This document shows positions 7,282 through 32,000 of a stretch of 32,000 nt of DNA, piece by piece. The notes below the pieces were generated by a model. It did no database searches. It had not been told where the DNA came from and saw only the letters and a program-made list of their open reading frames with translations. Position numbers and translations under genes: made by a program. This stretch comes from Candidatus Thorarchaeota archaeon (GTDB lineage Archaea; Asgardarchaeota; Heimdallarchaeia; Hodarchaeales; Hodarchaeaceae), in contig JBHLRO010000007.1 in the NCBI GenBank assembly GCA_048882505.1, forward strand, positions 117,826 to 149,825, given 5' to 3'. The stretch's first letter is position 1, and each line of letters begins with the position of its first letter.

Positions 7282-8412
7282 ATGAATAGGTCATTGAAAG
7301 AGCTAACCTCGATCTTACGAAGTCAGACTTACACAAAAGACGTATTAATGCGAATTCGCCAAGATCTGGACAAGATGGGAATTACCTCAGAGAATCCCGT
7401 AACAATAATGCATGTGTGTGGCACCCATGAAGATACACTGATGAAATATGGAATTCGTGACCTATTGAAAAGAGAATTGGGTGAACGGCTACGAATGGTA
7501 GCTGGCCCCGGATGTCCTGTTTGTGTATCCCCCGTTCAAGATATTGATTTTGCTATAGCTCTTTCAAATGTTCCCAATGTGATGATTACTTCTTACGGGG
7601 ACATGGTACGTGTACCTGGTAGTACCAGAAGTTTAGAACATCAACGTAAAAACGGGCGAGACATAAGGATTGTTTACAGTGTGACTGACGCTGTTAAGTT
7701 ATCATTAAGATATAAAGAGAAAAATATCGTATTTCTTTCACCTGGGTTTGAAACCACCGTTCCAGGCACTGCTGTAGAGGTGATGAATAAACCTCCGTCA
7801 AATTTTTTTGTTCTTTCATCACACCGACTTGTACCACCTGCGTTAAACATATTAGCGGAACTTTCCGACCTGGCCCTGGACGGATTTATTCTGCCGGGCC
7901 ATGTTAGTGTGATTATTGGAGAGAGAGCTTACGAAAGTCTAGTTGACCGATACCAGAAAGCTTCCGCGATATCAGGTTTTGAACCGTTGGATATATTACA
8001 GGGTATATCTGCAGTTATCAAACAGCTGAAAGATGGAATTCCAAAAGTTATCAATACATATGGAAGAGCAGTTACTCATGAGGGGAATATAGTAGCTCAA
8101 AAATATATAAATAAGGTTTTTCAAACTGTAGATGCCATTTGGAGAGGATTGGGAACGTTTTCTGACTCGGGATTAGATTTCCGTCCTGAATTTGCTCATT
8201 TGGACGCCAGAAGTGTCTTTGGAGACCAGGTACAAGTGGAGCCAACGCGAGAAATGCCTCCAGGTTGTTTGTGTCACAAAGTTGTTATCGGAGTAATAAC
8301 CCCTCATGAATGTCCATTGTATTTGACTCATTGCACCCCAGAAATGCCCATAGGCCCCTGCATGGTTGGATTGGAAGGAACTTGTCGTATTAATGCAATC
8401 TACGGGGAATAA
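7282..8412 (+). CDS. hypD: Hydrogenase maturation scaffold HypD
   Basis: CGTH, GPGCPVC, GFETT, PGHVS and C-terminal Cys cluster ending GPCMV..EGTC. Confidence 0.97.
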   Translation: MNRSLKELTSILRSQTYTKDVLMRIRQDLDKMGITSENPVTIMHVCGTHEDTLMKYGIRDLLKRELGERLRMVAGPGCPVCVSPVQDIDFAIALSNVPNVMITSYGDMVRVPGSTRSLEHQRKNGRDIRIVYSVTDAVKLSLRYKEKNIVFLSPGFETTVPGTAVEVMNKPPSNFFVLSSHRLVPPALNILAELSDLALDGFILPGHVSVIIGERAYESLVDRYQKASAISGFEPLDILQGISAVIKQLKDGIPKVINTYGRAVTHEGNIVAQKYINKVFQTVDAIWRGLGTFSDSGLDFRPEFAHLDARSVFGDQVQVEPTREMPPGCLCHKVVIGVITPHECPLYLTHCTPEMPIGPCMVGLEGTCRINAIYGE

Positions 8413-8416
8413 TCAG

Positions 8417-8656
8417 CTAATACCCCAGCTGTGTGCGTTCTTCACCTGTCATTGCTTGCCAAAGCTTGATATTTTCCAAGGCTTCCTTTGGATCTATTTT
8501 TTGAATGGCAAATCCGGCGTGAACTATAACATAATCATCTAGCTGGGCATTTTCGATTAGGGAAACATTAGCTTCGCGTTTTACCCCCAAAAAATCTACC
8601 AATGCGATTCCATTTTCTCTGATCTGCAATATCCTTCCAGGTATTGCCAAACACAA
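8417..8656 (-). CDS. hypC: Hydrogenase chaperone HypC/HupF
   Basis: MCLAIPG N-terminus, YVIVHAGFAI. Confidence 0.95.
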   Translation of the reverse strand: MCLAIPGRILQIRENGIALVDFLGVKREANVSLIENAQLDDYVIVHAGFAIQKIDPKEALENIKLWQAMTGEERTQLGY

Positions 8657-11192: not shown

Positions 11193-11233
11193 AGCTGGTT
11201 ATACTTGATTATAAGACGAATTCAATATCAAAA

Positions 11234-11260
11234 AGAAAGTGAAACTCCAGATAACTTTCT
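11234..11260. promoter_or_regulatory. Stem-loop: 7-bp stem AGAAAGT/ACTTTCT, loop GAAACTCCAGATA, between convergent hypF and hypA
   Basis: Perfect inverted repeat 5 nt past the hypA stop; may act as a terminator; loop motifs shared with 2717-2748. Confidence 0.4.
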
Positions 11261-11265
11261 ATTCG

Positions 11266-11634
11266 TCATACAACGATCGATTCAACCGTAGTTTCCGTTC
11301 CTGAAAGAATTTCCGTTGTAAAACTCGAACATGACGGACAAGGGTAAACAGGAGCCAAATCCTGTTGACTTGTTGGAATTTCTGATATTTCCCCCTCGAA
11401 ACCGCATGTCTGGCACTTAAGCTCTCCAGGAACCCGTTTTATCACCAAATTGGTTGATCTTGTCAAATCGTTCTCAATCTTTACCAAATCAAAACAAAAA
11501 GCAAATTGATCCAGGTGAATGCTTGAAAAAACCCCGAAAGACATAACGACTTCCTTTATTTTTTTTACGTTTTGATTTTTGGCTTGCGACACTACTGTAT
11601 CAATAACGGACTGTGCGAAGGAGCATTCATGCAT
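11266..11634 (-). CDS. hypA: Hydrogenase nickel-insertion protein HypA
   Basis: MHE N-terminus, CQTC and CPSC zinc sites. Confidence 0.95.
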   Translation of the reverse strand: MHECSFAQSVIDTVVSQAKNQNVKKIKEVVMSFGVFSSIHLDQFAFCFDLVKIENDLTRSTNLVIKRVPGELKCQTCGFEGEISEIPTSQQDLAPVYPCPSCSSFTTEILSGTETTVESIVV

Positions 11635-11695
11635 TTTAGATCCAAATCATCTGTCGAGATGGATTTAAATTAATCTTTCCGATTAACTTTCATGG

Positions 11696-12211
11696 ATGTC
11701 CCTGAGTCCAAAAGCACCTTTAGTTATTCTAGGTATTGGCAACACGGTACGTATGGATGACGGAGCGGGCATCCGTGCAGTTGAAGAACTGGAAAAGAAC
11801 GAGCGCATAAAAACATTCGATATCGCATTCAAGTATCTTAACACGGGGGGTTTGGACATATTGGATGCTATTGATGGTCACCAGTATGCAATCATAGTCG
11901 ATGCCGCTTCACTGGATGATCAAGAATACAACCCTGGCGATATCATCCATTTTCCAGATTTATATGCTTTAAAGGATAGATATCACGAAGAGATCTCATC
12001 GCATAGTATGGGAGTAATTCCTGTCATGAATTTCGCCGAAATTGGAAATTACAATCTTCCGTCCAGAGTCGAGGTTTATGGCATCCAGGTTAAAGAGACC
12101 AGATATTTCAGCGAAGAGCTAACCGAGGCTGTAAGAGCAGGAGTTACAAGATTAACCTCCATTTTAGTAAAAAAGGTCATTAGTTTCTACAATGAGCTTC
12201 CATTAGAATGA
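11696..12211 (+). CDS. Hydrogenase maturation endopeptidase (HyaD/HycI family), copy 1
   Basis: LGIGNTVRMDDGAG, IVDA, SSH motifs; immediately upstream of the first mvh operon. Confidence 0.92.
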   Translation: MSLSPKAPLVILGIGNTVRMDDGAGIRAVEELEKNERIKTFDIAFKYLNTGGLDILDAIDGHQYAIIVDAASLDDQEYNPGDIIHFPDLYALKDRYHEEISSHSMGVIPVMNFAEIGNYNLPSRVEVYGIQVKETRYFSEELTEAVRAGVTRLTSILVKKVISFYNELPLE

Positions 12212-12467
12212 AACGTGAATGAAGAAGCTCTAATGGGATGGGATTGTATTTTCAATTCGCCTTTGTGGAAATGTTTACATTGTAATCGGTTTGTTTCGGA
12301 TACTTCTGGCATTAAAAATAGTATTAATCGCCAGATTAACATATTATAACGTAAATACTTAGAAATTATTTTCTAATGGCTTGATTCCTCTATTAACAAT
12401 AGTTACAAGCAAAACTTTATGTATACGGAATCGGAGGGTAGCATGACCTAATGCGTGAGGACGAAAA

Positions 12468-13391
12468 ATGAGCAAAGCGAAAATTGCCACCGAATGGCTA
12501 ATGGTTTGCTCCGGATGTGAAGTTTCGCTATTAGATATCCATGAAGCAATTGTGGACGTCTTAGAAAAAGCGGATATCGTGCGTTCACCTGTTTTGGCTG
12601 ATGTAAAGGACTTTGTCCCTGCTGACGTAGGAATCATCTCAGGTGGAATCCGGAACGAGCATAATATCCACGTAGCACAGGAAATGCGGAAAAACTGCAA
12701 GATTATTGTTGGATTAGGCAGCTGTGCCTGTTTTGGCGGTATACCCTCTTTAGGCAATATGTATTCTCGTGAAGAGATTCTGCATAAAGTTTACCAAGAT
12801 ACCCTGGGCGTAGACAATCCGTTGGGTCGGTACCCACAGGATGATTTGCCAGCATTGACTGAGCGAGTTCGACCATTGAACTCAGTAATTGATGTGGACA
12901 TAATGCTGCCAGGATGTCCCCCTGTCCCAGAACTTATTGCTACAGCGGTAATGAGCTTATTAGAGGGAAAGCCCCTTGCCTTACCAAGCTATTCTGTTTG
13001 TGAACCCTGTCCCCGGGCAAAAAGAAACATCCAAATTACTGAGCTTAAGCGATGGTATCGATCTGCAAATGAATCTGTTGATCCCGATAGTTGTTTACTT
13101 GAACAGGGTTATCTATGTCTGGGTCCAGCGACGTGGGGTTTGTGCGATGCTCGGTGCACAAAAGTCGGTGTACCGTGTCGAGGATGTCACGGACCATTAA
13201 ATCCAGATCGGGAACCAGGACTTGATATTGCGTCTCTAATGGCTACCCTTACAACAAAACTTCCAATCGAAAAAGTCATGGAGGCGCTAGGTAACGATCC
13301 CTTGGCGTATTTCTATCAACATCAATACGGTGCGACCAAATTCAACAAATTATCTGAAACAAAGCTAAAATCAAAGGCGGTAAGCAAATGA
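12468..13391 (+). CDS. mvhG: Group 3c-type [NiFe]-hydrogenase small subunit (MvhG-like), copy 1
   Basis: CSGC, GSCACFGG, PGCPP, VCEPC, CLLEQGYLCLGP...CDARC...PCRGC. Confidence 0.92.
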   Translation: MSKAKIATEWLMVCSGCEVSLLDIHEAIVDVLEKADIVRSPVLADVKDFVPADVGIISGGIRNEHNIHVAQEMRKNCKIIVGLGSCACFGGIPSLGNMYSREEILHKVYQDTLGVDNPLGRYPQDDLPALTERVRPLNSVIDVDIMLPGCPPVPELIATAVMSLLEGKPLALPSYSVCEPCPRAKRNIQITELKRWYRSANESVDPDSCLLEQGYLCLGPATWGLCDARCTKVGVPCRGCHGPLNPDREPGLDIASLMATLTTKLPIEKVMEALGNDPLAYFYQHQYGATKFNKLSETKLKSKAVSK

Positions 13392-14842
13392 GTGCAACAA
13401 AGATAATTAAAGTAGAACCCGTGTCTCGTATCGAGGGGCATGCTGAGATTAAACTCTTTTTGGACGAATCCGGAAGTTTGGCTGATGCGCAGGTGAAGGT
13501 TGTTGAAGTACGAGGATTCGAGAAATTCCTTATTGGTAGACCTATAGAAGAAATGCCCCTCCTCACTCCTCGGATGTGTGGAATATGCCATGTCCCACAC
13601 CACTTGTGTTCTGCCAAAGCGGTAGATGCCACATTCGGCCTCAATCCTGAAGAAATTCCGCTGACTGCATATAAATTAAGAAGATTAATGATGTACGGTT
13701 CGTATATTCATAGCCACGTTTTACATTTCTTTTATCTGGCTGCACCTGATTTGGTATTGGGGCCTGATTCCAATCCAGCCAAGCGAAATGTCATCGGCCT
13801 CCTCGAAGCAAACCCAGAACTCGTTAAGCAAGTAATAGCCGCCCGAAAAGTAGGTCAAGAGATCACGAAAATCCTTGGAGGACGATCAGTTCACCCCGTA
13901 ACGGCAGTACCTGGGGGACAATCTCACCCACTATCGCTCGCTGATAGGGACAAGATAGAACGAAATGTCAAGGATTTGGCTCAAAATTTCCTACCAATGG
14001 CCAAAGATCTTGCTCTTTCATTATTCGACCAATATGGCGAAGTAATAGATTCTCTAGGAGTGATTTCGACCAAACACATGGGCATGGTCGGAACAAACGG
14101 TAACCTCGAATTCTATGATGGGAAAGTTCGTCTTATTGATGAAAACGCCGATACCTTGGAAGAATATTACGGGATTGAATATCGTAACGTCATCTCTGAA
14201 CGTATCAAGGACTTCTCCTACCTCAAATTCCCGTATTATAAGAAACGGTCATTTGAGGACGGTTGCTATCGTGTAGGACCACTAGGTAGGATTAATGTCG
14301 CAGACCGTATTGATACCCCAATCGCTCAGGAATTATTGAGTGAATTTCGTAACAAGTTCGGTAGACCCGCCCAACAAACGTTACTATATCATTACGCCAG
14401 GATTATTGAATTTGCTCATGCCATTGAAACAGTTCTAGATTTGCTGGCAGATCCCGAAATAACGGGATCGCTTTTACGGACTCCAGTGAAACCACGTGAG
14501 GGCGAAGGAGTAGGAATTGTTGAGGCTCACCGTGGCACGCTATTTCACCATTATCAAACGGATAATAAGGGGATTGTAAGAGATGTAAACCTGATTGTTG
14601 CCACCGTGGGGAATAATGAAGCGATCAATCGGTCTGTACAAGCGGCTGCGAGAAACCTCATTAAAGACAATACCCCTGCAGAGGGTTTAATGAATCGATT
14701 GGAGATGTGTGTCCGGGCTTACGATCCATGCTTTAGCTGCGCCACTCACAATGTCCGTTCAGGTGCAGTAGCCACACGAGTAAAAATATTGGATCATGAA
14801 GACAAACTGATACATGTGATGCAAAATTGGGATGAAAGATAA
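13388..14842 (+). CDS. mvhA: Group 3c-type [NiFe]-hydrogenase large subunit (MvhA-like), copy 1
   Basis: RIEGH, RMCGIC (L1), DPCFSCATH (L2) plus a 30-aa cleavable tail; ATGA overlap with mvhG. Confidence 0.93.
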
Positions 14843-14849
14843 GGTGACG

Positions 14850-17264
14850 ATGATGAAAATTGGAACAGTTATGTGCAATTGTGGGGGAAGTATAAAAAAC
14901 ATCGATTTTGAAGAATTGCAAAGATTCTACAATGAGAATAAATTGAATGAAGCCGATTACTGTGCATTCCATCATAATCTCTGTTCAGAAAAAGGAAAAA
15001 ACTTCATCAAAGAACTCCACAAGCGCGAACAACCCGATTCTGTTGTATTTGCAGCTTGTACACCCAAAACCGCAGGATATCTGTTTCAAGATCTAACCAA
15101 GGAGCTAAAGTTGTCTCCTTTCAAGATCGTGGGGGCAAATATTAGAGAACATGTAGGATGGGTAACCCCAGACAAAACCGAGGCAACTAAAAAGGCAAAA
15201 GCTGTCCTTTTATCTGCCTACAAGAAAGCCAATCACCAACACCAAGTTACTTCAATCAAAATCCCAATGAACGATGCTGCGGTAGTTGTCGGTGCGGGGC
15301 CAGCTGGAATACAAGCAGCGCAAGATCTTGCCGAACGGGGGCATAAGGTTCATCTAATTGACAGAAAATCGTATATTGGTGGTAATGCAGTTAAACTTAG
15401 TCACTTTTTTCCCAGCGATGATTGTGCTGCATGCCTTCCTACTGTGGGTATCAAAGGTGTACACCAATCCAATGTTCGACGGTGTTTTTATAGATCCGCA
15501 TTTGATGTAAATCCTAATATCGAACTTCATATTCGATCTGAAGTTGAATCTGTTAAGGGCCACCTGGGAAATTATTCTCTTGTAATAAGAAAGAAACCAA
15601 CGCATGTAGATATGCATAAATGTGTAGGATGCGGTCTCTGTGTCGAAGCGTGCCCTGTAGAGAAGCCTGATGAGTTTAATCTTGGGCTTACATCACGCAA
15701 AGCTGTTTATCTTCCTGCAATAACATGTAGTACCACCAAATACGTGATTAACCGCGACGAATGTCCAGAGGGATGTACGGAATGTGCAAAGGTATGTCCC
15801 GTTGATGCCATTGAGTTGGATTCTAGTGAAACAAGGGAGCATCTGGCCGCTGGTGGAATTATCTTAGCTACTGGTTTTGAAGAATACGACCCCAAATTGG
15901 TGAGTGAATACCACTACGGTCAACCAGGTTTTCAGAACGTAATTACACAAAGTGAATTGGCCAGATTTCTGGATATAACTGGGCCTACCCGAGGAAACCT
16001 AGTTAGAAAGAACAATGGACACGTTGATCGCGTGGTTATGATTCTTTGTGCTGGATCTCGTTCAAAGAAATATAACGAATGGTGTTCTAACGTCTGTTGT
16101 ATGGTGTCACTGAAACATGCAATCACGATTAAGGAAAGGCATCCTGAAATAGATGTTGTGATTGCCTACATGGACATTCGGGCAGTCGGCCCTCAGTACG
16201 AAGAATATTATACTCGTTGCCGTGAATTAGGGGTCAAGTTCATTCGAGGACGCCCTTCTGAGGTTGAAAGCGATGGAAAATCTCTCTATGTGGTAACTGA
16301 GGATACAACAACCAATCGACTTGAGTCAATCAAGGCTGAAATGGTTGTGTTAAGCATGAGCATGGCTCCCAGCAAAGGCATCGAAACATTGGCAGAAAAC
16401 CTTAACATCGCAATCGGAAGTGACGGATTTTTCAAGGAACTATATTCAAAACTTCGTACAACTGAAACCAAGCAAGCAGGGGTTTTTGTGGCAGGATCTG
16501 CGATTGCTCCTGCAGATATTCCAACGACGGTAACACGCGCTGCATATGCGGCTAGCCAACTCGACCTATTGTTGCGGAACAACTATGTCGGTAAACGCTT
16601 CCCAACCGCTGTTATCGATGAAGGGACTTGTAACAAATGTGAGTCATGTATATCCATTTGTCCCTACGGGGCGATAGAAAAAGTTGCAGTGGCAAATCCT
16701 GGAGTTCAAGTCCAGATCAATCCCATAGGTTGTGTAGGTTGTGGTCTATGTCAGTCTTCCTGCCCCGTATCTGCTATCTCCGTCAATTATTATCAAGAGG
16801 AGGCCGTACTGGATCAAGTAGAGGGTATGTTGTACGATGCCGAATCTGAGACAGAGCCTATTATTGTCACATTCGCCTGTTGGGAGTGTGCTTACGCATC
16901 CACCGATTATATCGGCCAAATGTCCCTAACCCAACCCGATGTTGCCTACCCTCCCAATATTAGGATAATTCCAGTTCAATGTACGGGGAATATTTCACTC
17001 GGGATGATAGAAAAAACCTTCGAACTCGGAGCGGATGGAGTACTAATTGCAGGATGCCTGGAAGATAGATGTCACTATGAAACTGGTTCGAAGACCGCAT
17101 CACATCGCGTTGGTCTGTTCAAACAACTTCTCAAACAGATAGGTATCGACCCACGAAGGATCGAAAAAACACACATTTTCTGTTCCAACTCGAATACATT
17201 TGTTAAAACTGCTCGTAAGATGCTTGGGATCCTACAAGACATTGGAAAGTTGGAACATTCATAG
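14850..17264 (+). CDS. hdrA: HdrA-like flavoprotein fused to a C-terminal MvhD [2Fe-2S] domain
   Basis: CNCG/LCS/AACTP N-domain, GAGPAG FAD motif, inserted and C-terminal 2x[4Fe-4S] domains, CAGSR...CSNVCC, then an MvhD block ([18 protein letters not shown]). The ORF opens at 14832, but GGTGA at 14843-14847 favours ATG 14850 or 14853. Confidence 0.93.
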
Positions 17265-17292
17265 GATGAACCTTAGGGATTGTTGAACTAGT

Positions 17293-17820
17293 ATGACCAC
17301 TACAATTGAACCGACTCTTCAGTCTGAATTTGACCATTTGCTTGATCAAATCAAATCCTGTTATCAATGTGGAACCTGCACAGGTGGATGTCCTGTGTTC
17401 CGAGTTTATCCAGATTTTAATCCAAGGATAATCGTTGAAACCATTCTCACAGGACAAACGGGGCAACTCCTCATCGATGATCTCATCTGGTATTGCTCAT
17501 TGTGCTATACATGTACTACACGATGCCCACAAGGTATCGACGTTGGTCATCTATTGATTGAGCTTAAGAATCTTGCCAGACAGTTAAAGAATGTACCAGA
17601 AGGCATTATTAATGAATTTGAAGCAATAAGAGAAACAGGAATCACCTCAGCTATTTCAGAATCAATCCTGAAGAAACGAGAAAAGTTAGGCCTTCCTCAG
17701 CTTCCCCTCACCGATACAAAGGAGATCCAAAAGCTCCTAGATATTATGGGAGTATCAGAAGAGCTAATTAGGGAAGTTAAGAGACAAAAGGACGATTCCC
17801 TAGAGGAGGTTACTGAGTAA
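17293..17820 (+). CDS. hdrC: Heterodisulfide reductase subunit C
   Basis: CYQCGTCTGGCP and CSLCYTCTTRCP clusters; sits before hdrB. Confidence 0.92.
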   Translation: MTTTIEPTLQSEFDHLLDQIKSCYQCGTCTGGCPVFRVYPDFNPRIIVETILTGQTGQLLIDDLIWYCSLCYTCTTRCPQGIDVGHLLIELKNLARQLKNVPEGIINEFEAIRETGITSAISESILKKREKLGLPQLPLTDTKEIQKLLDIMGVSEELIREVKRQKDDSLEEVTE

Positions 17821-18701
17821 TGTCAAAATATGCTTTATTTCTTGGATGTACAATTCCTTATCGTCTACCATTCGTGGAAGCGGCAGTTCGACAAACCATG
17901 GAGCTTTTCAACATAGAGCTTGTTGATCTTCCCTTTGGATGTTGTCCTGACCCTGGAGGTGCCCAAGCTTTCAGTAGTATAGCTTGGTACGCCCTAGCCG
18001 CTCGAAACCTTAGCATGGCCGAGGAACAGGGATTAGATATCGTAACAGCCTGCTCTGGGTGTTTTGAAACCCTCAAGGTCACAAGGGCTAAGCTTGAATC
18101 GGATCCCCTTCTTCGGCAAGAGATTAATGAGTACCTTTCTGGGATCGACCGTGAATTCAAGGGTACAGTGGATGTGCTGCAATATCAATCCGTGTATTAT
18201 GACGAGATAGGACCAGAGAGAATCGCCGCACAAATAACTGATCCCCTCACGGGATTTCGGTTTGCTACCCATCCTGGTTGTCACTATAGCAAACCTGCAA
18301 ATCTTTTACAAACGGAAGACCCGGAAAAACCTCATAAACTTGATGCTTTGGTTGAAGCCTTAGGCGCACAATCTGTCCCTTATCTTGGCAAGCTATTATG
18401 TTGTGGAGCTGGAACTCGGGGTGTAAATCCATCAGTTTCTTTGGAAATCGCCCACAAAAAGATTCTTGAAGTCGAAAAAGCCAATGTAGACGGGATGGTT
18501 ACTATTTGCCCCTCTTGTTATGTTTCATATGACGTTGGCCAGGTATTAATGGCCAAGCAGTTCGGCAACAAGACGAAAATTCCAGTGTTCGTGTATCCCG
18601 AGCTCCTCGGACTGAGTTTAGGATTAGATTTAAGGCCTGGGCTGCAAATGCATACAATAAAGGCCCGAGATTTCCTAAAGAAGTTCGCAGTAAATGCTTA
18701 G
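17820..18701 (+). CDS. hdrB: Heterodisulfide reductase subunit B (two CCG domains)
   Basis: FLGC, GCCPDP, TACSGC, HPGCH, CCGAG, TICPSC; TAATG coupling to hdrC. Confidence 0.93.
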   Translation: MSKYALFLGCTIPYRLPFVEAAVRQTMELFNIELVDLPFGCCPDPGGAQAFSSIAWYALAARNLSMAEEQGLDIVTACSGCFETLKVTRAKLESDPLLRQEINEYLSGIDREFKGTVDVLQYQSVYYDEIGPERIAAQITDPLTGFRFATHPGCHYSKPANLLQTEDPEKPHKLDALVEALGAQSVPYLGKLLCCGAGTRGVNPSVSLEIAHKKILEVEKANVDGMVTICPSCYVSYDVGQVLMAKQFGNKTKIPVFVYPELLGLSLGLDLRPGLQMHTIKARDFLKKFAVNA

Positions 18702-18776
18702 ACATACTTAACTTTATAGGAATCAGAATCGTCCTTTATCTCGAAACTAGATCCACAAATTAATTGACACGGCTGT

Positions 18777-18896
18777 ATGAATAATTCCATCTGTTTTGGA
18801 GCCTCGAACCCTCCCTATCTGGAATACGGAGCTGCGCTCGTTTTTGGAGTCCTGGCTATATCCACAGCAACTTCCATTTTAATGAAAATGCCTTAA
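18777..18896 (+). CDS. Candidate 39-aa single-pass membrane microprotein
   Basis: MNNSICFGASNPPYLEYGAALVFGVLAISTATSILMKMP*: an uncharged hydrophobic run of about 20 aa, 75 nt after hdrB. Below the ORF-track cutoff; may be spurious or a remnant. Confidence 0.35.
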   Translation: MNNSICFGASNPPYLEYGAALVFGVLAISTATSILMKMP

Positions 18897-18936
18897 TTGG
18901 CTAAGAACAACTAAGGATAGCTTGGGGCATATGCAC

Positions 18937-19347
18937 CTATTTTTGACAAACGCAAGGAAGGGACATACAGTCAGAAGCGATTGGTTGGAGGCCTGTTAGA
19001 TCAAGGTCTTCAGTCGTTATCGTTCCACTGACAGCCTTACTGTTAAGTTCAAGGAACCCGTCAGTTTCTTGTGGCCCTAGTTTAGTTAGCAATGGGAACA
19101 TTTCAATCTCAATATCCCTTAGATCACACGCTGTTTCACATAAAGAATAGCAACCGCTTTCTAGTTTGTTACGGGATAATCTTAACTTTTGTACCAAGTT
19201 GTTGGAAGGAAGCTCGCCTCGTTGATAAAGCGTTCCCATGGTAGATGCTAATACTGCCCATTTCCAACCAAATCTAGAAATCATTTCCCGAATTTCCTCT
19301 TCGGTTTGTCCCGGAAGTGATTCCTTAATTTCTACGGGAGTAGTCAT
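18937..19347 (-). CDS. Cys-rich hypothetical protein, possibly DUF2096-related
   Basis: 136 aa; WAVL...LYQRG...KLRL pattern recalls the archaeal DUF2096 N-terminus (from memory, unverified); six Cys in CYSLCETAC and CMSLPCVC. Confidence 0.7.
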   Translation of the reverse strand: MTTPVEIKESLPGQTEEEIREMISRFGWKWAVLASTMGTLYQRGELPSNNLVQKLRLSRNKLESGCYSLCETACDLRDIEIEMFPLLTKLGPQETDGFLELNSKAVSGTITTEDLDLTGLQPIASDCMSLPCVCQK

Positions 19348-19591
19348 TTTCTATCACTATATTTAAACCGTTCAAGGTTTAATATATGATTGCTCTAATC
19401 TATTAAAAAGTTTTTTCATTTTTTATTGACATTAATGTAAACTTATGAATTTTATTACAACTACCGGGTTCTAGGTTGGTTTTGGAACTTTCTCAATTCA
19501 AAACTTACGAAACCTCTGGCAATAATCATCTTAAATCAAAGAAAGATTAGCTGATAGTGATTCCCTCCCTATGGTCTTGCATGTCAAATCA

Positions 19592-19610
19592 TTGCTGATA
19601 TAATCAGCAA
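19592..19610. promoter_or_regulatory. Perfect palindrome TTGCTGAT-ATA-ATCAGCAA, candidate operator
   Basis: 8-3-8 inverted repeat in the divergent gap, 80 nt upstream of protease 2. Confidence 0.4.
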
Positions 19611-19690
19611 AAAATCTCTAGATCATCTCTTTAATCGGATACAAATTTGACTTAGTAGTAGTATCAATTCATTTTTGTGAGCATAAGTTA

Positions 19691-20197
19691 ATGGACCCCT
19701 CGAAAATCCTAATCCTAGGTATCGGAAACGAACTTGCTGGAGACGATGCTTTGGGCCCGAGAATTCTCCGAGAAATCTCAGAAATCGGACCTCCTGGGAT
19801 CGATTACAAGCAAATCTCAAGTGGGGGGCTCTTAATCCTAGAATCAATCTTGGGATACGAAAAGGTATTAATTATCGATACGATCGAAACGGATTCTCCA
19901 CATAAACGGATTTTGAGAATCACACCCGAGGATTTTTCTAATTCTACATTTCTCAGTTCTCCTCATGATATTAATTTTCCAACTGCTCTAGAATTGGGAA
20001 AAAGAACTGCGAGTGAGCTCATGCCTGGTATAGTTCGGATCATCGGGATTGAAATACCTAGGCAAAAAGAATTTTCGGATCAGATTTCAGCAGAAACCCA
20101 AAGTAAAATCCCTAAGATTATAAAGTTGGTTCTAGAGGAAATTGGGTTCTTTTTGAATGAAAATGATAAGAAAGAAGACGATAAAAAAAGGAAATAA
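19691..20197 (+). CDS. Hydrogenase maturation endopeptidase, copy 2
   Basis: LGIGNELAGDDALG, IIDT, SSPHD motifs; converges on mvhA copy 2. Confidence 0.92.
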   Translation: MDPSKILILGIGNELAGDDALGPRILREISEIGPPGIDYKQISSGGLLILESILGYEKVLIIDTIETDSPHKRILRITPEDFSNSTFLSSPHDINFPTALELGKRTASELMPGIVRIIGIEIPRQKEFSDQISAETQSKIPKIIKLVLEEIGFFLNENDKKEDDKKRK

Positions 20198-20215
20198 GGA
20201 GGAAACTGGCATCTT

Positions 20216-21694
20216 TTACCGTACATACTGGGACTTACGCCATTTTACCCTATTATCCTTATCATGGACAAGAACTTCTAGGGGCATTTGTCCAGGTAGG
20301 CTATGGGTAGCACAGGCAAAGCACGGATCGTACGCTCTAAATGCCATCTCCACCATATTCAACATGCCATCCTCGACCTCTGGCCCATGTATGAACTGTT
20401 GTGCTGCCTTCTTTATCGAAAGGCAAATGGGAGCATTGTTATGAGCCGTTGCTACGATAAGATTCACTCCATCTTTTATGATAACACCCTTCTTGTCAGT
20501 TTTGTAATGGTGGATTAATGTTCCTCTAGGGGCTTCAACTACGCCTACTCCTTCATCAGGTTCATTTGGCTCCGCTCGAAGATCAGTAGAAGTGATTTGC
20601 GGATCTTTTACAAGTTCTAGAAGGCGTTCACTTGCATAGAGTAGCTCTATAACGCGTGCCCAATGATTTCCCAGGGTGTGATGAGCAGGCTTCCCCAGTA
20701 CGTTCATCATGGCCTTGTACTCTTCATTGGCTAATGGAGTTGCCATCCCGTCTGCGACGTTCAATCGTGCCAGAGGTGCAACGCGATAAATGCCTGAATC
20801 CAATCCCTCAATGAGCCCTTTCCACCCTATATTCTTTAGGTAAACGACTTTCAGGTAGGAATACGGCAGCGGTTGTTCTTCAATATATTCCAAGTAATCT
20901 TTGGGAGCAAATTGTGCATACTCCTTCCCCTTAGGATCGATAACTCGGATTTCACCATTATAAAAGTTTACATGTCTATTCTTGTCCACTAGTCCCATAT
21001 AATAACTCTTCATATAGTATCCAGGGTCAAGGACTAAGGCTTTATTTGCCTCGTTACCCAACACAACGTCATGGAAAATTTTTATCGTGAATTTAGAAAA
21101 CTCAACCAAAGATTTAGCCCACTCTTCGATCTGAGCTCGTTCTTCTTCAGAGATGGATTTCAGCATTCCTCCCGGTACACCAGCGCAGGGAAGGACGGCA
21201 TCCGCCGCAATTATTGCTTGAATCCGTTGCGCATAGGAACGATGCTTTATCACTTCCTTTCCAATATCTACTCCAACTGTCTCAACGACCCCGAGAATAT
21301 TTCTCTTGCTCGGTGGAGCCGACGGACCAACTACAAAATCAGGACCACCTAATGCATAGAAATGAGCAATGTGACTATGAATCATGTGTGCAGAGTAATA
21401 GAGCTCCCGAAGTTTTTTCGCGGGTTCTGGAGGATCCACATTGAAAACATCATCCAACGCCTTACTGGATGCCATATGATGAGCACCAGGACATACACCG
21501 CATATCCGGCTAGTTATCCGGGGCATTTCTTCGACCAATCTCCCCTCACAAAAGCGTTCGAACCCTCTCAGTTCTGGAACCTGAAAGTACGCGTTTTCAA
21601 CCGTATTTTGATCATTGAGAAAAATGTGGATTTTCCCATGGCCCTCCAGTCTCGTAATCGGATCAATAACAATATTCTTCGAATTAACCGTCAT
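20216..21694 (-). CDS. mvhA: Group 3c-type [NiFe]-hydrogenase large subunit (MvhA-like), copy 2
   Basis: RLEGH, RICGVC, EAPRG, DPCFACATH plus a 28-aa tail. Confidence 0.93.
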   Translation of the reverse strand: MTVNSKNIVIDPITRLEGHGKIHIFLNDQNTVENAYFQVPELRGFERFCEGRLVEEMPRITSRICGVCPGAHHMASSKALDDVFNVDPPEPAKKLRELYYSAHMIHSHIAHFYALGGPDFVVGPSAPPSKRNILGVVETVGVDIGKEVIKHRSYAQRIQAIIAADAVLPCAGVPGGMLKSISEEERAQIEEWAKSLVEFSKFTIKIFHDVVLGNEANKALVLDPGYYMKSYYMGLVDKNRHVNFYNGEIRVIDPKGKEYAQFAPKDYLEYIEEQPLPYSYLKVVYLKNIGWKGLIEGLDSGIYRVAPLARLNVADGMATPLANEEYKAMMNVLGKPAHHTLGNHWARVIELLYASERLLELVKDPQITSTDLRAEPNEPDEGVGVVEAPRGTLIHHYKTDKKGVIIKDGVNLIVATAHNNAPICLSIKKAAQQFIHGPEVEDGMLNMVEMAFRAYDPCFACATHSLPGQMPLEVLVHDKDNRVKWRKSQYVR

Positions 21695-22660
21695 TTATGC
21701 TTTCCTCCTTAGGAATGCCGATCTTCCGGCCGTAAACTCATACATTGTCCCTGCAAAATCTGGTATTTTTGCAATTACGTCTTCCATCACGGATTCATCA
21801 CTTGCTTCAATAATAGAACCCAAGACACTAGTCATCTTAGCTCCAATGTCGACAATATTGGGGGCAGGTCCAAAACAGCCTCGACAAGGGTAATTTGTCG
21901 TGATACATCTAGCCTCACATCCCCCGCGTGTTGCAGGTCCCAAACAGATTATCCCCTGATCTAGCAAGCATTTTTTGGGATCAATATCCATGACCTCCCA
22001 AATTCTCTTGAATTCCTTGATCACATGTTTTTCAGGCTTTTCCCGGGGACATTCTTTACATAGAGCGAACTCTTCTGCAATCACTGTGCCCCTAGGCGGA
22101 AGTTCACCTGTTAGGAAAGCCGTAACCCCAGCGATAATCCATTTTTTGGTAGGTGGGCATCCCGGGACATAGTAATCAACGGGGACAACTTCATCTAAAG
22201 GATAAACAGCATCGAAGAATTCGGGGATTGTAACTTCACCCTCTTTTGTGGTATAAGAGGTACTAGGGTAAATTTCTTCAGGATTCCTTGTACTTGGTGT
22301 AGTCTTATATACACGCTCAAAAATAGAGTTTTTATCCTTAAAATTTGCAAGAGCCGGTACTCCGCCGCAATGGGCACAGGTTCCGAAAGCCACCAAAAAT
22401 TTGGACTTTTTTCTAAGCAGTTTGGCGACATGTACCGCTTCGGAATTCCTGATGCCTCCATTAAAGAAAGTAACATCAATTGAATTGTCAGGCATTGACT
22501 CGACATCTTGATATTTCGTATCAACAGCTACAGGCCAAAATACAATATCTGCTTTTGCGGCCACATCTAGGACTGCCTCATCTAAGTCTAAAATCGCAAT
22601 TTCGCAACCCCCACACGAAGCGGCCCAATAAAAGGCAATTTTGGGTTTTTCATCACTCAT
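21695..22660 (-). CDS. mvhG: [NiFe]-hydrogenase small subunit (MvhG-like), copy 2
   Basis: SCGGC, GTCAHCGG, PGCPP, LCKEC, CLLDQGIICLGP...CRGC. Confidence 0.92.
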   Translation of the reverse strand: MSDEKPKIAFYWAASCGGCEIAILDLDEAVLDVAAKADIVFWPVAVDTKYQDVESMPDNSIDVTFFNGGIRNSEAVHVAKLLRKKSKFLVAFGTCAHCGGVPALANFKDKNSIFERVYKTTPSTRNPEEIYPSTSYTTKEGEVTIPEFFDAVYPLDEVVPVDYYVPGCPPTKKWIIAGVTAFLTGELPPRGTVIAEEFALCKECPREKPEKHVIKEFKRIWEVMDIDPKKCLLDQGIICLGPATRGGCEARCITTNYPCRGCFGPAPNIVDIGAKMTSVLGSIIEASDESVMEDVIAKIPDFAGTMYEFTAGRSAFLRRKA

Positions 22661-22663
22661 TGA

Positions 22664-23149
22664 TTAGACCTCCATCTTTGAAAACTCACGCTTCTTCAGA
22701 TGTTTACCCCAATTCAAGGGCCCCAGTTCCTTGATCGCATCGGAAAACTCATTTAGAGTCTGTTGGTATTTTTTAGCCTCAGAAGCTGAAATCCATTCGA
22801 TCCTCACGCGAGCTGGTTCAATTCCATATGCATCTAGGAGTTTTTGTAAGAGTTTCATTCTTTTATACGCACTATAATTCCCATCTTCATAATGACAGTC
22901 ACCAAGATGACACCCCCCTATCAATACTCCATCGGCACCTTTTGTGAATGCCTGGACAATGAAGCTGGGATCCACACGTCCAGAGCACGGGACACGGATT
23001 CCAATCACGTCCGCCGATACTGGCATCCTGCTTGTTCCGGCCAAGTCAGCTGCAGCGTGTGTACACCATTTGCAATAAAATCCGATTATCGTTGGCTTGA
23101 ATTCCAATGCTACTTCGGGTTTAGCTTCAATCGCTTCCAAATGTATCAC
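22664..23149 (-). CDS. mvhD: MvhD/FlpD [2Fe-2S] subunit
   Basis: FYCKWC, VPCSGRVDP, GGCHLGDCHY; GTGA overlap with hdrA copy 2. Confidence 0.95.
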   Translation of the reverse strand: MIHLEAIEAKPEVALEFKPTIIGFYCKWCTHAAADLAGTSRMPVSADVIGIRVPCSGRVDPSFIVQAFTKGADGVLIGGCHLGDCHYEDGNYSAYKRMKLLQKLLDAYGIEPARVRIEWISASEAKKYQQTLNEFSDAIKELGPLNWGKHLKKREFSKMEV

Positions 23150-25152
23150 CCCGTTCCATATGCGATTTGTGCAGATTCTATAATTCCTTCGATTTCCGAA
23201 AGAATTGCCTCATCAGAGTAATAATATTGATGAATAGCTCCAGAGGGACAAACAGAAACACATAAACCGCAACCTTGACATTTTATGGCTGTAATTACCG
23301 CTACTTTCTTTTCTGTATCTTCAGCAATTGCGTCGAACGGACAGACAGAAATACACATCTTGCAGTTTGAACAGAGGTCTTCATTGACTGTAGCTATTGT
23401 CGGTTCGACCAGTATGTACCCACGAGATAACAGACTCAAAGCGCCCGACGCTGCAGCCGCTCCCTGGGCCACGGAATCTGGAATATCCTTTGGGCCTTGA
23501 CATGTACCCGCCAAATAAATGCCTTCAACCTGAGTACCAACGGGAGCCAGCTTAGGATGTTTTTCTGTGAAGAAGTTTTCCGCTCCACAGCCTATGCCAA
23601 ACATATTGGCCATTCCCTTTGCATCATGTCGGGCTACGATAGCGTCACTTAGTATAACCATATCTAAGGGAACGTGTAATACTTTTTGACTAATGGAATC
23701 TTCTACTTGGACTACAAGTTTTTCGGTACCATTCTGAATCTGCCTCAATACTTTAGCAGGTTTACCACGAACAAATATGACGCCTTCTTTCTGCAATCGA
23801 TCATAAAATTCCTCATACCCTTTTCCAAAGGCCCTGATATCGATGTAGAACTGAAAAATAGTAGCTTTGGTCCGTTCCTTAATAAGATGCGCGTATTTAA
23901 GGGAATACATGCAACAAACGCGCGAGCAGTACGCGTTGTGATTCTCGTCCCGAGACCCGACGCAATGGATGATTCCGACGGATTTTGGTTGCTGATCTGT
24001 TAGCTTTCCGTCCTTCCTGAGATACAAGGATCCATTCGTTGGCCCAGATGCGTTTAGTAGGATTTCTATTTCCAATGCTTTGAAGACATTATCTAATTCA
24101 CCGTACCCATATTGAGGAACCGTTCGTGCGTCAAATGTCTCGTACCCTGTTGCCAGAATAAGGGCCCCAGCCTCCACTTCTATCAGTTCATCTTCTTGAT
24201 TGAAATCTATTGCCCCTGTTGGACAAATTTTTTCGCATAATGCACACCGCCCCTTAAGGAAATATGTACAATTTGCCCTGTCGATCAACGGGTATGGCGG
24301 GACAGCCTGGGGAAAAGGTCTGTAAATCGCTTTACGGTTCTTTAAACCCATATAAAATTCGCTCGGAATTTTCTTAAGCGGGCATTTCTCTTCACAGAGT
24401 CCACAACCTGTACATAATTCTTCGTCTACGGAACGGGCTTTCTTTCGGATGGTAACTTGAAACTGGCCTGGGGATCCCGAGACATTCTCCACTTCAGAGT
24501 AAGAATAAAGCGTTATATTGGGATGCTGTCCGATATCGACCATTTTGGGGGTTAGAATACAAGAAGCGCAATCTAATGTTGGAAATGTCTTATCAAAACG
24601 TGCCATTTGCCCTCCAATGGAAGAGGATCTTTCAACTAAGACCACCTCCTTTCCTGCATCAGCTACCTGGAGCGATGCCTCAATTCCTGCAATTCCTGCA
24701 CCCACAATGAGAACGCGCTGCGTCACTTCTGTTCTTTCTTCATCTAGGGGTTCTTGAGTGATAACTCGCTTTACAGCAGCGGTAATCAATTTCTTTGCTT
24801 TCTCCAGACTCGCTTTTGAATCCTCTGTTACCCAAGAATCCATTTCTCGAATGTTGGCGATAGTCAACATATACGGATTTAGACCGCTTTTTGCAATTGT
24901 ATTTCGGAAGGTCTTTTCGTGCATTGTTGGTGAACAGGCAGCCACCACAACGTGACTCAATTTCCTCTCTTGAATCGTATCGTGTATGATCGATTGACCT
25001 ACCTCACTACAGACATAGGTTGTATCTTCGACAGTTTCAACATGAGGTAGGGTTCGAATGTACCCCTTTAGTTCGTCGATAGCAATCTTTCCCGCTATAT
25101 TAGTTCCACAATGACAAATAAAAACTCCGATTCTAAATTCTGAGGTGTCCAT
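23146..25152 (-). CDS. hdrA: Heterodisulfide reductase subunit A, copy 2 (canonical architecture)
   Basis: CHCG, GAGIAG, KTFPTLDCASCILTPKM, CVGSR...CSRVCCMYSLK, inserted and C-terminal ferredoxin domains. Confidence 0.95.
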   Translation of the reverse strand: MDTSEFRIGVFICHCGTNIAGKIAIDELKGYIRTLPHVETVEDTTYVCSEVGQSIIHDTIQERKLSHVVVAACSPTMHEKTFRNTIAKSGLNPYMLTIANIREMDSWVTEDSKASLEKAKKLITAAVKRVITQEPLDEERTEVTQRVLIVGAGIAGIEASLQVADAGKEVVLVERSSSIGGQMARFDKTFPTLDCASCILTPKMVDIGQHPNITLYSYSEVENVSGSPGQFQVTIRKKARSVDEELCTGCGLCEEKCPLKKIPSEFYMGLKNRKAIYRPFPQAVPPYPLIDRANCTYFLKGRCALCEKICPTGAIDFNQEDELIEVEAGALILATGYETFDARTVPQYGYGELDNVFKALEIEILLNASGPTNGSLYLRKDGKLTDQQPKSVGIIHCVGSRDENHNAYCSRVCCMYSLKYAHLIKERTKATIFQFYIDIRAFGKGYEEFYDRLQKEGVIFVRGKPAKVLRQIQNGTEKLVVQVEDSISQKVLHVPLDMVILSDAIVARHDAKGMANMFGIGCGAENFFTEKHPKLAPVGTQVEGIYLAGTCQGPKDIPDSVAQGAAAASGALSLLSRGYILVEPTIATVNEDLCSNCKMCISVCPFDAIAEDTEKKVAVITAIKCQGCGLCVSVCPSGAIHQYYYSDEAILSEIEGIIESAQIAYGTG

Positions 25153-25155
25153 TTG

Positions 25156-26328
25156 CTACAGTGCCTCCATAACAATTTCCGCAATGTCTCTAGCCTTGAT
25201 TTGCTGCTCAACATTGCCCACTTTTACCGCATCATCGAACATTAATAGACAGAAATAACACGCAGTCGCCAGCACAGATGCACCGACATCCAGAGCTTGT
25301 TTTAACCTGGGAAGTGATAGCCTCTCTTCTACTCGAGTTTCAGCCCAAATGTTCCCGCCTCCACCGCCGCAGCAAACACTAAACTGGTGGTTATCAGGCA
25401 TTTCCACCAGTTTTACGCCAGGAACTGCCTTAAGGACTCTTCTAGGTTCCTCATAAACACCATTATGTCTGCCGAGGTAGCAAGCATCATGATAAGTTAT
25501 ACGATGTTCCTTATGTCCATTATCGGGAAACTCTAATGCGCCTTCACTAATCAGCCGATCCAAAAACTGGGTATAGTGAAGTACTTCGGTACCTTCAGGG
25601 AGATTGTAGGCGTTCTTAATCCGATTGAATGAATGTGGGGATGTGGTAATGATCGTGGAAGGGTGAACTCGCTTGATTAGGGCCTCATTTTGTTCTCGTT
25701 CATAATCTGCGAGAACCGTTTCACCCATGAAGTTGATACAGTTCCCGCATTCTCTTTCCTTGTTTCCAACGATTCCAAAATTTACCCCCGTACGTTTCAG
25801 AATCGATGAGATGGCCTGCGCTATCTTTTGGGACCGTGGATCGTAAGATGCGGTACATCCAACGAAATACATAACTTCAGTTCCCTTTTCAGCTACGGGA
25901 ACATCCAATCCCTTTGCCCAATCAGCTCTTGCTGCGGATCTCAAGTTGAATGGGTTTCCTGTTTGGAAAAATGACTGTAATGTTTGCGTGTAGGTATATG
26001 GCATTTCGCCGCCCTCTTCGACCGTATGTGCACGGTAGGCTGTGATGATTTCGATAATCTTCACTTTTTTGGGGCAAAATTCTTCGCATGCGGCACAGGT
26101 CGTGCACCGCCAGATCACCTCGTTTTCCGATTCAGGTATTATTCCGAGTTGCGCCATGTGAATGAGTTCTCGAGGATTGAACGAAGAAACTATATTCAAT
26201 GGGCAAATGCCTGTACAATTAGCGCATTGGTAACAGTATTTCAAGTTATCTTGGGATAATGTGATTATCTTGTTACGAAAATCGAGATTGGGAGTATAAT
26301 AACGGGTATTGAGTTCCATAGAATTCAA
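25156..26328 (-). CDS. HdrC-like 2x[4Fe-4S] plus two CCG domains (HdrD/GlpC-like Fe-S oxidoreductase)
   Basis: CYQCANCTGICP, CTTCAACEEFCP, FVGC, YHDAC, CCGGGGG, TACYFC; first CCG domain degenerate. Confidence 0.88.
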   Translation of the reverse strand: MNSMELNTRYYTPNLDFRNKIITLSQDNLKYCYQCANCTGICPLNIVSSFNPRELIHMAQLGIIPESENEVIWRCTTCAACEEFCPKKVKIIEIITAYRAHTVEEGGEMPYTYTQTLQSFFQTGNPFNLRSAARADWAKGLDVPVAEKGTEVMYFVGCTASYDPRSQKIAQAISSILKRTGVNFGIVGNKERECGNCINFMGETVLADYEREQNEALIKRVHPSTIITTSPHSFNRIKNAYNLPEGTEVLHYTQFLDRLISEGALEFPDNGHKEHRITYHDACYLGRHNGVYEEPRRVLKAVPGVKLVEMPDNHQFSVCCGGGGGNIWAETRVEERLSLPRLKQALDVGASVLATACYFCLLMFDDAVKVGNVEQQIKARDIAEIVMEAL

Positions 26329-31317: not shown

Positions 31318-32000
31318 ATGGCTGCGGAAAGTATCGACCAAAAGGATCCTAAAATTGGCGTATTCCTTTGTAAGTGTGGTAAGAATATCGCTGGTAGCGT
31401 TGACATAGATAGGGTTGCAGAACAGATCGAAAACCTACCTGATGTCAAGCTAGTCCAGGTGAATACCTACACTTGCTCTGATCCAGGCCAGGTAGAAATT
31501 GAAAATGCTATCAATGAACAAGGAATTGAAAAAATCGTTGTTTCCGCATGTTCTCCCCGTCTTCATGGGCCGACCTGGAAAACCTTGATGCGTCGTCTTG
31601 GGATGAACCCTGAACTTGTCGAAGTGGCAAACATCAGAGAACAGTGCTCTTGGGTTCATCTACACGAGAAAGAAGAGGCCACAAGGAAAGCTACTGAATT
31701 GATTGAGATGGCGGTCGCTAAGGCAGACCTTTTAGAGCCTGTTGACGAAATCGTTGTTCCCGTGGAAAAGCGAGTTCTAGTTATTGGTGGTGGAGTGGCA
31801 GGTATTCAAGCTTCTCTTGATCTCGCGGATGATTTTGAAGTCGTACTTGTTGAAAAAGAACCTACCATCGGAGGCAGAATGGCATTAATCGATAAGACGT
31901 TTCCTACAATGGATTGTAGCATCTGCATTCTTGGCCCAAAAATGGCTGACGTGGGTAACCATAAGAATATCAATCTAATTTCTAATGCGGAAGTAACCCG
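31318..32000 (+). CDS. hdrA: Heterodisulfide reductase subunit A, copy 3 (5' part, truncated by the window; missing from the ORF track)
   Basis: Manual translation: MAAESIDQKDPKIGVFLCKCGKNIAG...SACSP...NIREQCSWV...GGGVAG...KTFPTMDCSICILGPKM; GGTGA at 31305-31309. Confidence 0.93.
   Translation, partial: MAAESIDQKDPKIGVFLCKCGKNIAGSVDIDRVAEQIENLPDVKLVQVNTYTCSDPGQVEIENAINEQGIEKIVVSACSPRLHGPTWKTLMRRLGMNPELVEVANIREQCSWVHLHEKEEATRKATELIEMAVAKADLLEPVDEIVVPVEKRVLVIGGGVAGIQASLDLADDFEVVLVEKEPTIGGRMALIDKTFPTMDCSICILGPKMADVGNHKNINLISNAEVT

Follow-up and report, generated by a model that had tools for sequence, protein, structure and literature searches.

Two convergent Mvh-Hdr-like modules in a Hodarchaeales genome probably encode separate hydrogenase/Hdr-type complexes

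A 32,000-nucleotide stretch of DNA from Candidatus Thorarchaeota archaeon (assembly GCA_048882505.1, contig JBHLRO010000007.1, positions 117,826 to 149,825), hereafter called the window, carries two gene modules that each combine a [NiFe]-hydrogenase of the Mvh type with Hdr-type subunits and that are arranged tail to tail. Does this convergent pair encode one mixed enzyme or two independent ones? The initial annotation of the window had noted that each module looks altered where the other is intact, and had proposed that the two either run different reactions or assemble as a heteromeric HdrA1/HdrA2 complex. Our analysis makes it fairly probable, on the evidence of the genes themselves, that they encode two separate cytoplasmic [NiFe]-hydrogenase/Hdr-type complexes which lie tail to tail by chance. 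This reading rests on the genes present, their cofactor motifs, the different ancestry of the two modules, their occurrence apart from each other in related genomes, and a protease for each. Asgard archaea are the closest prokaryotic relatives of eukaryotes. Mvh/Hdr is central to hydrogen-based models of Asgard metabolism (PMC12222021, bioRxiv 10.1101/2024.07.04.601786), and published reconstructions already list it for Hodarchaeales (PMC12222021).

The window is the final 32 kb of a 149.8-kb contig in a genome of 4.3 Mb that is 94.5% complete (G000), and close homologues of its proteins bear the NCBI names of Hodarchaeales or Heimdall-group Asgard archaea. The ten open reading frames (ORFs) of the two modules were found where the initial annotation had placed them, with Pfam and NCBIfam E-values of 1e-28 to 1e-236 and with overlaps or gaps of at most 28 nucleotides inside each module, and every gene and motif claimed for them was recovered by hidden Markov models and alignment. 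Module 1 runs along the + strand from 11696 to 18701, in this order:

11696-12211, + strand: maturation endopeptidase of module 1 (PF01750 HycI; TIGR00072, 93.5 bits, cut-off 47.45)
12468-13391, + strand: MvhG1, [NiFe]-hydrogenase small subunit with 14 cysteines and without a twin-arginine signal (PF01058)
13388-14842, + strand: MvhA1, [NiFe]-hydrogenase large subunit, group 3c-like, with EAHRG (NF041785 VhuA, 459 bits, cut-off 800)
14832-17264, + strand: HdrA1::MvhD fusion of 810 amino acids, a 'type Ia' HdrA (Pfam/NCBIfam), FlpD at residues 678-805
17293-17820, + strand: HdrC1, with two [4Fe-4S] motifs (TIGR03290, 98 bits, cut-off 160)
17820-18701, + strand: HdrB1, with two complete CCG motifs (TIGR03288, 283 bits, cut-off 345)

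Module 2 runs along the - strand from 26328 to 20216, and its own endopeptidase gene, which the initial annotation had overlooked, is convergent with mvhA2:

25156-26328, - strand: HdrD-like protein of 390 amino acids, with an HdrC-like N-terminus (two [4Fe-4S] motifs) and two CCG Pfam stretches
23146-25152, - strand: HdrA2, 668 amino acids, type I (676 bits against PDB 5ODC chain A)
22664-23149, - strand: MvhD2, a separate [2Fe-2S] subunit (PF02662 FlpD, E-value 1.8e-50)
21695-22660, - strand: MvhG2, [NiFe]-hydrogenase small subunit (Pfam/NCBIfam)
20216-21694, - strand: MvhA2, [NiFe]-hydrogenase large subunit, with canonical EAPRG (Pfam; NCBIfam VhuA, 388 bits, cut-off 800)
19691-20197, + strand: maturation endopeptidase of module 2, 168 amino acids (TIGR00072, 81.2 bits, cut-off 47.45)

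Both large subunits keep the N-terminal RxCGxCxxxH and C-terminal DPCxxCxxH motifs, and thus the four Ni-Fe cysteines, the second motif reading DPCFSCATH in MvhA1. Chain F of PDB 5ODC is the best PDB match for MvhA1 (438 bits) as well as for MvhA2, and the two differ by EAHRG in MvhA1 against EAPRG in MvhA2. MvhG1 scores 268 bits with NF045875 (VhuG), under the cut-off of 450. HdrA1 reads SELAR where the HdrA of M. thermolithotrophicus reads LELER, so that E356, counted along the alignment, is replaced by alanine; it keeps K409 and both ferredoxin domains, the inserted and the C-terminal one, and carries about 14 extra residues with one cysteine after the DCxxC motif. The eight cysteines of HdrC1 form two CxxCxxCxxxC motifs, and those of the CCG motifs in HdrB1 are C10, C41-C42 and C78xxC81, then C154, C194-C195 and C230xxC233. 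We also considered the missing 'REHC' cysteine of HdrA1 as a meaningful defect and rejected it as a signature, because HdrA2 and the whole bacterial type I group lack it too.

HdrA2 has both E356 and K409. In the HdrD-like protein, CCG domain one had been described as devoid of cysteines; it is in fact reduced, with three cysteines left (GC, then xCGNC), the CC doublet lost and the CxxC replaced by SPHS, and the second CCG domain is complete. Nor is this protein a fusion of HdrC with HdrB, a candidate that we ruled out: it has no significant similarity to HdrB1, and its best PDB match is 9OJN, a 1042-amino-acid iron-sulfur-binding reductase (178 bits). Its gene lies between those of HdrA2 and POR gamma, and no gene for a membrane partner stands beside it at the locus, HdrE not having been searched for elsewhere in the genome. 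The two endopeptidases pass the superfamily cut-off of TIGR00072, and each adjoins a large-subunit gene extended past DPCxxCxxH. Among related genomes, that of module 1 is also found upstream of mvhG1 in G016, G003, G018 and G013, and that of module 2 is convergent beside mvhA2 in G016, G009, G011, G021, G023 and G019.

The distribution of the two modules in relatives bears directly on whether they belong together. We used HdrA1, HdrA2, the HdrD-like protein and MvhA1 as queries to search the genus (22 species genomes), the remainder of the order and 60 more genomes from the class, and then read the module loci of the relatives directly. Among the 22 genus genomes, module 1 occurs in 10, module 2 in 8 and both in only 2, namely G000 and its sister genome G016; co-occurrence of the paired layout, which had been put forward as a check, is thus not seen in the genus at large. 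Since 3.6 double carriers would be expected under independence, there is no positive association. Strict mutual exclusion was considered as well and is not shown either, as 2 against 3.6 does not amount to avoidance. Of the 17 genomes holding either module, 15 have one only, and the two that carry both are 96% identical at the protein level. The convergent pairing therefore belongs to one lineage of the genus.

Without module 2, the five-gene operon of module 1 is found in G003, which has it twice, and in G007, G012, G013, G014 and G018, with parts of it in G002 and G017; its orthologs share 58-62% (HdrA1) and 71-77% (MvhA1) identity with those of the window. Module 2 stands alone as a five-gene operon with its protease in G009, G011, G021 and G023, is cut by contig ends in G004 and G019, and is represented by a partial copy in G005, at identities of 73-76% for HdrA2 and 59-69% for the HdrD-like protein, whose gene holds its operon position at every module 2 locus. 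In a tree of RpoB (a single gene, G016 left out), G000 is sister to the rest of the genus and the module states are interleaved: the closed genome G009, which has module 2 only, groups with the module 1 carriers G014 and G017 (support 1.0). The earliest-branching lineage of the genus has retained both modules, and because other species keep one or the other, they look like alternative isoenzymes and not like obligate partners.

Some details of these genomes were noted in passing. Two complete copies of module 1 are present in G003 (C25 and C189; L024 and L025). Their HdrA proteins share 62% and 59% identity with HdrA1, and a type II HdrA cluster lies next to each copy; as this genome is listed with 8% contamination, the copies may stem from two strains. 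The RpoB matches in several relatives, namely G003, G010, G018, G019, G021, G025, G026, G028 and G029, contain one or two in-frame stops, all TAA except for TAG in G025, while the frame of G000 is unbroken (1139 amino acids). Such stops could reflect the usual archaeal rpoB split in two, or sequencing errors.

The ancestry of the two modules is also different. Between the modules, identity is 40% for MvhA, 36% for MvhG and 35% for HdrA, and MvhG1 reaches 54% with a Thorarchaeota homolog. HdrA2 is 55-57% identical to HdrA of Chloroflexota and Acidobacteriota, and MvhA2 is 56% identical to homologs of the same two phyla and 60% to a Bathyarchaeia homolog. In an HdrA tree of 61 sequences (FastTree), HdrA1 falls in a clade of fused proteins (support 1.0), sister to Thorarchaeota and together with Frey-, Jord-, Loki- and Bathyarchaeia proteins, and HdrA2 groups with the type I HdrA of Chloroflexota and Acidobacteriota (clade support 1.0), all key nodes being at 0.98 or above. 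The nearest non-Asgard relatives of HdrA2 sit in hdrC-hdrB-hdrA-mvhD-mvhG-mvhA-hycI operons. As judged from these relationships, module 1 is of an archaeal type, and module 2 is of a bacterial-type lineage with an HdrD-type protein at the position of HdrCB. The HdrA tree, which had been suggested as a way to examine a shared system, thus places the two proteins in separate, fully supported clades.

The variant residues follow the same lines of descent. The change of E356 to alanine and the insert with its invariant cysteine (R-[RKH]-C-x-Y-R) were observed in every fused HdrA::MvhD examined, both in Hodarchaeales and in proteins NCBI-named Thorarchaeota, Freyarchaeota, Jordarchaeaceae, Promethearchaeota and Bathyarchaeia. 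EAHRG is found in 8/8 MvhA1 orthologs and one Thorarchaeota homolog, the Bathyarchaeia homolog having EAARG. The xCGNC/SPHS form of the first CCG domain occurs in all HdrD-like orthologs of module 2 and in a further tier of Asgard proteins, and in the wider HdrD-like family of about 380 amino acids (Dehalococcoidia, Desulfobacteraceae, Thermoplasmata) this domain is already reduced, to CCG...SPHC. Since the variants are identical with or without the other module, they are inherited clade signatures and not a reciprocal adaptation in G000, contrary to the idea that each module was altered where the other is intact.

These results leave little room for a mixed complex, in which HdrA1 and HdrA2 would form a heterodimer and the two modules a single hybrid enzyme supplying each other's deficits. 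The modules are indeed adjacent and convergent in G000 and G016, and both HdrA proteins retain the DCxxC pair, of which one cysteine reportedly reaches the partner protomer in the methanogen MvhAGD-HdrABC structure. However, nearly all carriers of either module have to do without the other, the same variant residues occur in these single-module genomes, the two HdrA proteins share 35% identity and differ in ancestry, and a convergent layout implies two separate transcripts. The lack of co-conservation and the presence of each variant in single-module genomes are both outcomes that the initial annotation had itself named as refuting its proposal. We regard a heteromeric assembly as hardly credible: the apparent complementary divergence is a coincidence between two old paralog lineages, and the mixed-complex idea should be dropped. 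The other half of the initial proposal, that the modules run different reactions, is likely to hold, given their different output subunits, ancestry and own proteases.

Two further archaeal contigs show how the parts of module 1 have been combined. On a Bathyarchaeia contig, the order mvhG-mvhA-hdrA::mvhD-hdrC-hdrB is exactly that of module 1, but MvhA and MvhG are nearer to MvhA2 and MvhG2 (60% and 50%) than to MvhA1 and MvhG1, indicating that hydrogenase and Hdr parts have recombined in evolution. Divergent genes for a GcvH-type lipoyl carrier and a dihydrolipoamide-dehydrogenase-like protein precede this operon (L038, 2580-4285), a possible clue to a thiol substrate. On a Thorarchaeota contig (L037, 4622-10425), mvhG-mvhA-hdrA::mvhD is followed by the gene of a 307-amino-acid protein without a Pfam family, and there is no hdrCB, so HdrCB does not accompany every member of the fused HdrA clade.

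Compared with known systems, both modules resemble the methanogen MvhAGD-HdrABC complex (PDB 5ODC, 8RVU, 9SW2, 9SFI), which is the best PDB match for the Mvh and HdrA subunits compared; module 1 has all six of its functional parts, and K409 is shared by both HdrA proteins. Unlike in the methanogen complex, all scores with the VhuA, VhuG, VhuD, HdrA, HdrB and HdrC equivalogs of NCBIfam fall under the cut-offs. Module 1 further departs from it by the fusion of MvhD to HdrA, the loss of E356 and the cysteine-bearing insert, and module 2 by an HdrD-like protein with one complete CCG that replaces HdrB and HdrC; an HdrB with two complete CCG motifs beside a separate HdrC, as in methanogens, is present in module 1 but not in module 2. 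Because of these scores, and because one defining feature is missing from each, we file both modules as Mvh-Hdr-like variants and not as family members.

HdrA1 shares with the type Ia HdrA of Methanosarcina (HdrA2, NF040770) an MvhD at the C-terminus followed by hdrCB. It scores 671 bits with NF040770 (cut-off 1100), and the unfused HdrA2 and MvhD2 of the window score higher (785 + 170 bits), which indicates that the Asgard/Bathyarchaeia fusion is a separate lineage. In addition, the HdrA1 fusion is coupled to a hydrogenase, unlike the fused enzyme of Methanosarcina, which uses F420H2. The fused HdrA::MvhD is a recognised 'type Ia' form, for which multiple fusion events have been reported (PMC12054007).

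For module 2, the closest parallels are the bacterial hdrC-hdrB-hdrA-mvhD-mvhG-mvhA-hycI operons (L048, L049), with 55-56% identity for HdrA, 56% for MvhA and 45-48% for MvhG, the same hdrA-mvhD-mvhG-mvhA order and a dedicated protease. The Hodarchaeales module differs from them in that the 390-amino-acid HdrD-like gene takes the place of hdrCB upstream of hdrA and the protease gene is inverted. Like proteins of the HdrD/GlpC/TfrB/DsrK type, the HdrD-like protein has an N-terminal pair of [4Fe-4S] motifs and, after it, two CCG-type domains; among named families it matches TfrB (140 bits), TmcB, HmcF and DsrK best, always far under the family cut-offs, and its first CCG domain is more reduced than in the wider 380-amino-acid family. 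It does not fit HdrD of HdrDE, which has two complete CCG motifs and HdrE as partner, since its first CCG is incomplete and no membrane protein is adjacent.

We infer the electron path by homology to PDB 5ODC, along with bifurcation, the direction in vivo and a difference in substrates. In module 1, MvhA1 would split or make H2, and electrons would pass through the Fe-S clusters of MvhG1 and the fused MvhD domain to the flavin of HdrA1. From the flavin, one branch would lead through HdrC1 to the two CCG clusters of HdrB1, which would reduce a disulfide, and another probably to ferredoxin by way of the inserted ferredoxin domain. Module 2 would use the same hydrogenase-MvhD-HdrA wiring, from a bacterial-type lineage, with the HdrD-like protein as output and ferredoxin again as a further acceptor. 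As this protein has one complete CCG site, module 2 probably acts on a different thiol/disulfide or on a persulfide, and the arrangement suggests that the substrate is perhaps protein-bound. This single-CCG output is akin to a DsrK-type arrangement. The adjoining 2-oxoacid:ferredoxin oxidoreductase genes and a third hdrA fit a ferredoxin-linked role.

As to the substrates, the initial annotation had reported no mcr or CoM genes in the window, and this extends to the whole genome: no match to McrA (PF02249) or ComA (PF02679) was found in the 94.5%-complete assembly, the methanogen controls being positive, which makes CoM-S-S-CoB an unlikely substrate. No match above cut-off was found in the same genome for DsrC or CdhA, so that DsrC is likewise unlikely as a substrate, and H2-driven acetogenesis or carbon fixation by the Wood-Ljungdahl pathway is not supported by G000.

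Several points weigh against two separate complexes as described above. Most relatives are incomplete metagenome-assembled genomes, 70-99% complete, so that not every state scored as 'alone' is proven, and the species tree was built from one gene; for both reasons the individual absences are unproven. The strongest single-module cases are the closed G009, with module 2 on one closed contig, and the 96-99% complete G007 and G011. Bifurcation by module 1 is uncertain, because E356, a proposed bifurcation marker, is alanine in HdrA1. Finally, orthologs of HdrC1 and HdrB1 occur in genomes that lack module 1, in G005, G019 and G021 even next to module 2.

The loss of E356 raises the possibility of a division of labour, in which module 1 would be a non-bifurcating H2:disulfide oxidoreductase and module 2 the bifurcating enzyme. 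E356 is said to position K409 and has been proposed to separate bifurcating from non-bifurcating HdrA, the two residues having been used to sort HdrA homologs (PMC9430772, PMC12054007); by this measure HdrA2, with both, and HdrA1, with alanine as in every fused Asgard or Bathyarchaeia member examined, fall on opposite sides. However, HdrA1 keeps K409, whose side of the site touches the flavin at N5 (PMC6405883), and its inserted and C-terminal ferredoxin domains amount to the full three-branch wiring. Moreover, the E356 criterion is itself a proposal, and 21.7% of the HdrA representatives in a published survey lack this residue (PMC12054007). We therefore consider such a division unlikely.

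The last of the adverse points led to another view of the locus, centred on hdrCB. The HdrC1/HdrB1 orthologs in genomes without module 1 are 57-64% identical to those of the window. In G019 and G021 the pair lies directly past the protease of module 2; for G005, hit coordinates alone put the HdrB1 match on the contig of the partial HdrA2 match, about 1.3 kb past the inferred end of mvhA2; in the closed G009 it lies 35 kb from module 2; and it is also present in G020, in which no copy of either module was found. When HdrC and HdrB were concatenated for a tree, the pairs of G009 and G019, the two included, nested among module-1-linked pairs and thus belong to the same orthologous group. From this gene content, a single orthologous hdrCB pair is the constant element in the genus, and the adjoining hydrogenase-HdrA genes vary by species.

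This could mean that the reductase is shared: one HdrCB would dock to HdrA1::MvhD as well as to HdrA2, the HdrD-like protein would be an alternative output of HdrA2, and G000 would keep two interchangeable inputs. HdrCB is used in the bacterial operons most closely related to module 2, and the placement and orthology of the pair just described point the same way. Against a shared reductase, three genomes with module 2 and the HdrD-like gene, G011 (96% complete), G004 and G023, gave no hdrCB ortholog, the best match being at 44-45%. The HdrD-like gene is never missing from its place in the module 2 operon, and in G019 and G021 hdrCB lies outside that operon: the protease gene runs the opposite way, and the pair beyond it forms its own unit, divergent from that gene. 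HdrB1 also shares more identity with HdrB of Bathyarchaeia (41%) than with that of the Chloroflexota type (30%), and the partner of the pair could instead be one of the other HdrA paralogs of these genomes. On balance, we find a shared reductase quite improbable.

A broader form of the same idea would be a plug-and-play Hdr, with one HdrCB fed by either hydrogenase-HdrA input (the fused archaeal one without E356, or the bacterial one with its own HdrD-like output), species swapping inputs and G000 keeping both. We offer it as a speculation and give it a low chance. Its corollary would be that the fused HdrA::MvhD clade of Asgard archaea and Bathyarchaeia, which models of the origin of eukaryotes routinely show as a bifurcating Mvh-Hdr, may not bifurcate at all.

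With two separate complexes as the preferred reading, the label 'Mvh-Hdr' in Hodarchaeales would cover at least two unrelated enzyme types with different outputs, gained or lost between sister species, and a simple Mvh/Hdr annotation should be used with caution as a basis for inferring hydrogen dependence or energy conservation. We would retain the following points: E356 is lost throughout the fused HdrA clade of Asgard archaea and Bathyarchaeia, which also has the cysteine insert; in module 2 an HdrD-type protein replaces HdrCB; and sister species have swapped input modules while hdrCB stayed constant. Specific residues and pairings of subunits are now named for testing.

Other genes of the window and its surroundings complete the picture. 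Genes for hydrogenase maturation precede module 1:

6213-7259, + strand: HypE (Pfam AIRS/AIRS_C)
7282-8412, + strand: HypD (Pfam HypD)
8417-8656, - strand: HypC-like protein of 79 amino acids, between hypD and hypF, assigned by its N-terminus alone (MCLAIPG)
8778-11192, + strand: HypF (Pfam HypF domains)
11266-11634, - strand: HypA (Pfam HypA)

The 79-amino-acid ORF was likened to HypC from its MCLAIPG start, which we take to be typical of that protein. As this is the sole hyp set within the window, it presumably serves both hydrogenases.

Further Hdr-type genes flank the two modules. On one side is a partial gene:

31318-31998, + strand: third HdrA, starting 29 nucleotides past the POR beta gene and cut by the contig end

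Its ortholog in G016 (locus L020:7883-14045) has 796 amino acids and is followed by HdrC and HdrB paralogs 42-43% identical to HdrC1 and HdrB1; a POR-linked third Hdr module therefore probably extends past the contig end in G000. On the other side, the DNA immediately upstream of the window holds a fourth Hdr-type cluster (G000:C7:111245-117852, L042), its last gene ending at window positions 1-26. It comprises an HdrC-like, an HdrB-like and a 378-amino-acid HdrD-like protein, a type II HdrA of 1041 amino acids that carries two flavin domains, and MvhD, and clusters of this type directly adjoin the module 1 protease in G003, G013 and G018.

Finally, we examined the junction between the modules. 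A single Logan contig, probably from the source sample, covers window positions 11000-22039, and a contig from a different study connects the hdrB1 end with mvhA2; it comes from a relative with about 8-10% base differences across the aligned pieces. G016 has the identical layout of modules 1 and 2, with a contig break within hdrB1. The two spanning contigs and this layout indicate that the junction is real and not an assembly artefact. It contains one further ORF:

18937-19347, - strand: 136-amino-acid ORF with six cysteines, no family match

This ORF was rejected as an Hdr accessory factor: among the loci examined, tblastn matches were found in G000 and G016 only, and this restriction, with the lack of a family, places it outside both conserved modules. 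In the relative from the other study, the 122 nucleotides at 18815-18936, just upstream of the stop side of this ORF, are swapped for 124 unrelated letters.

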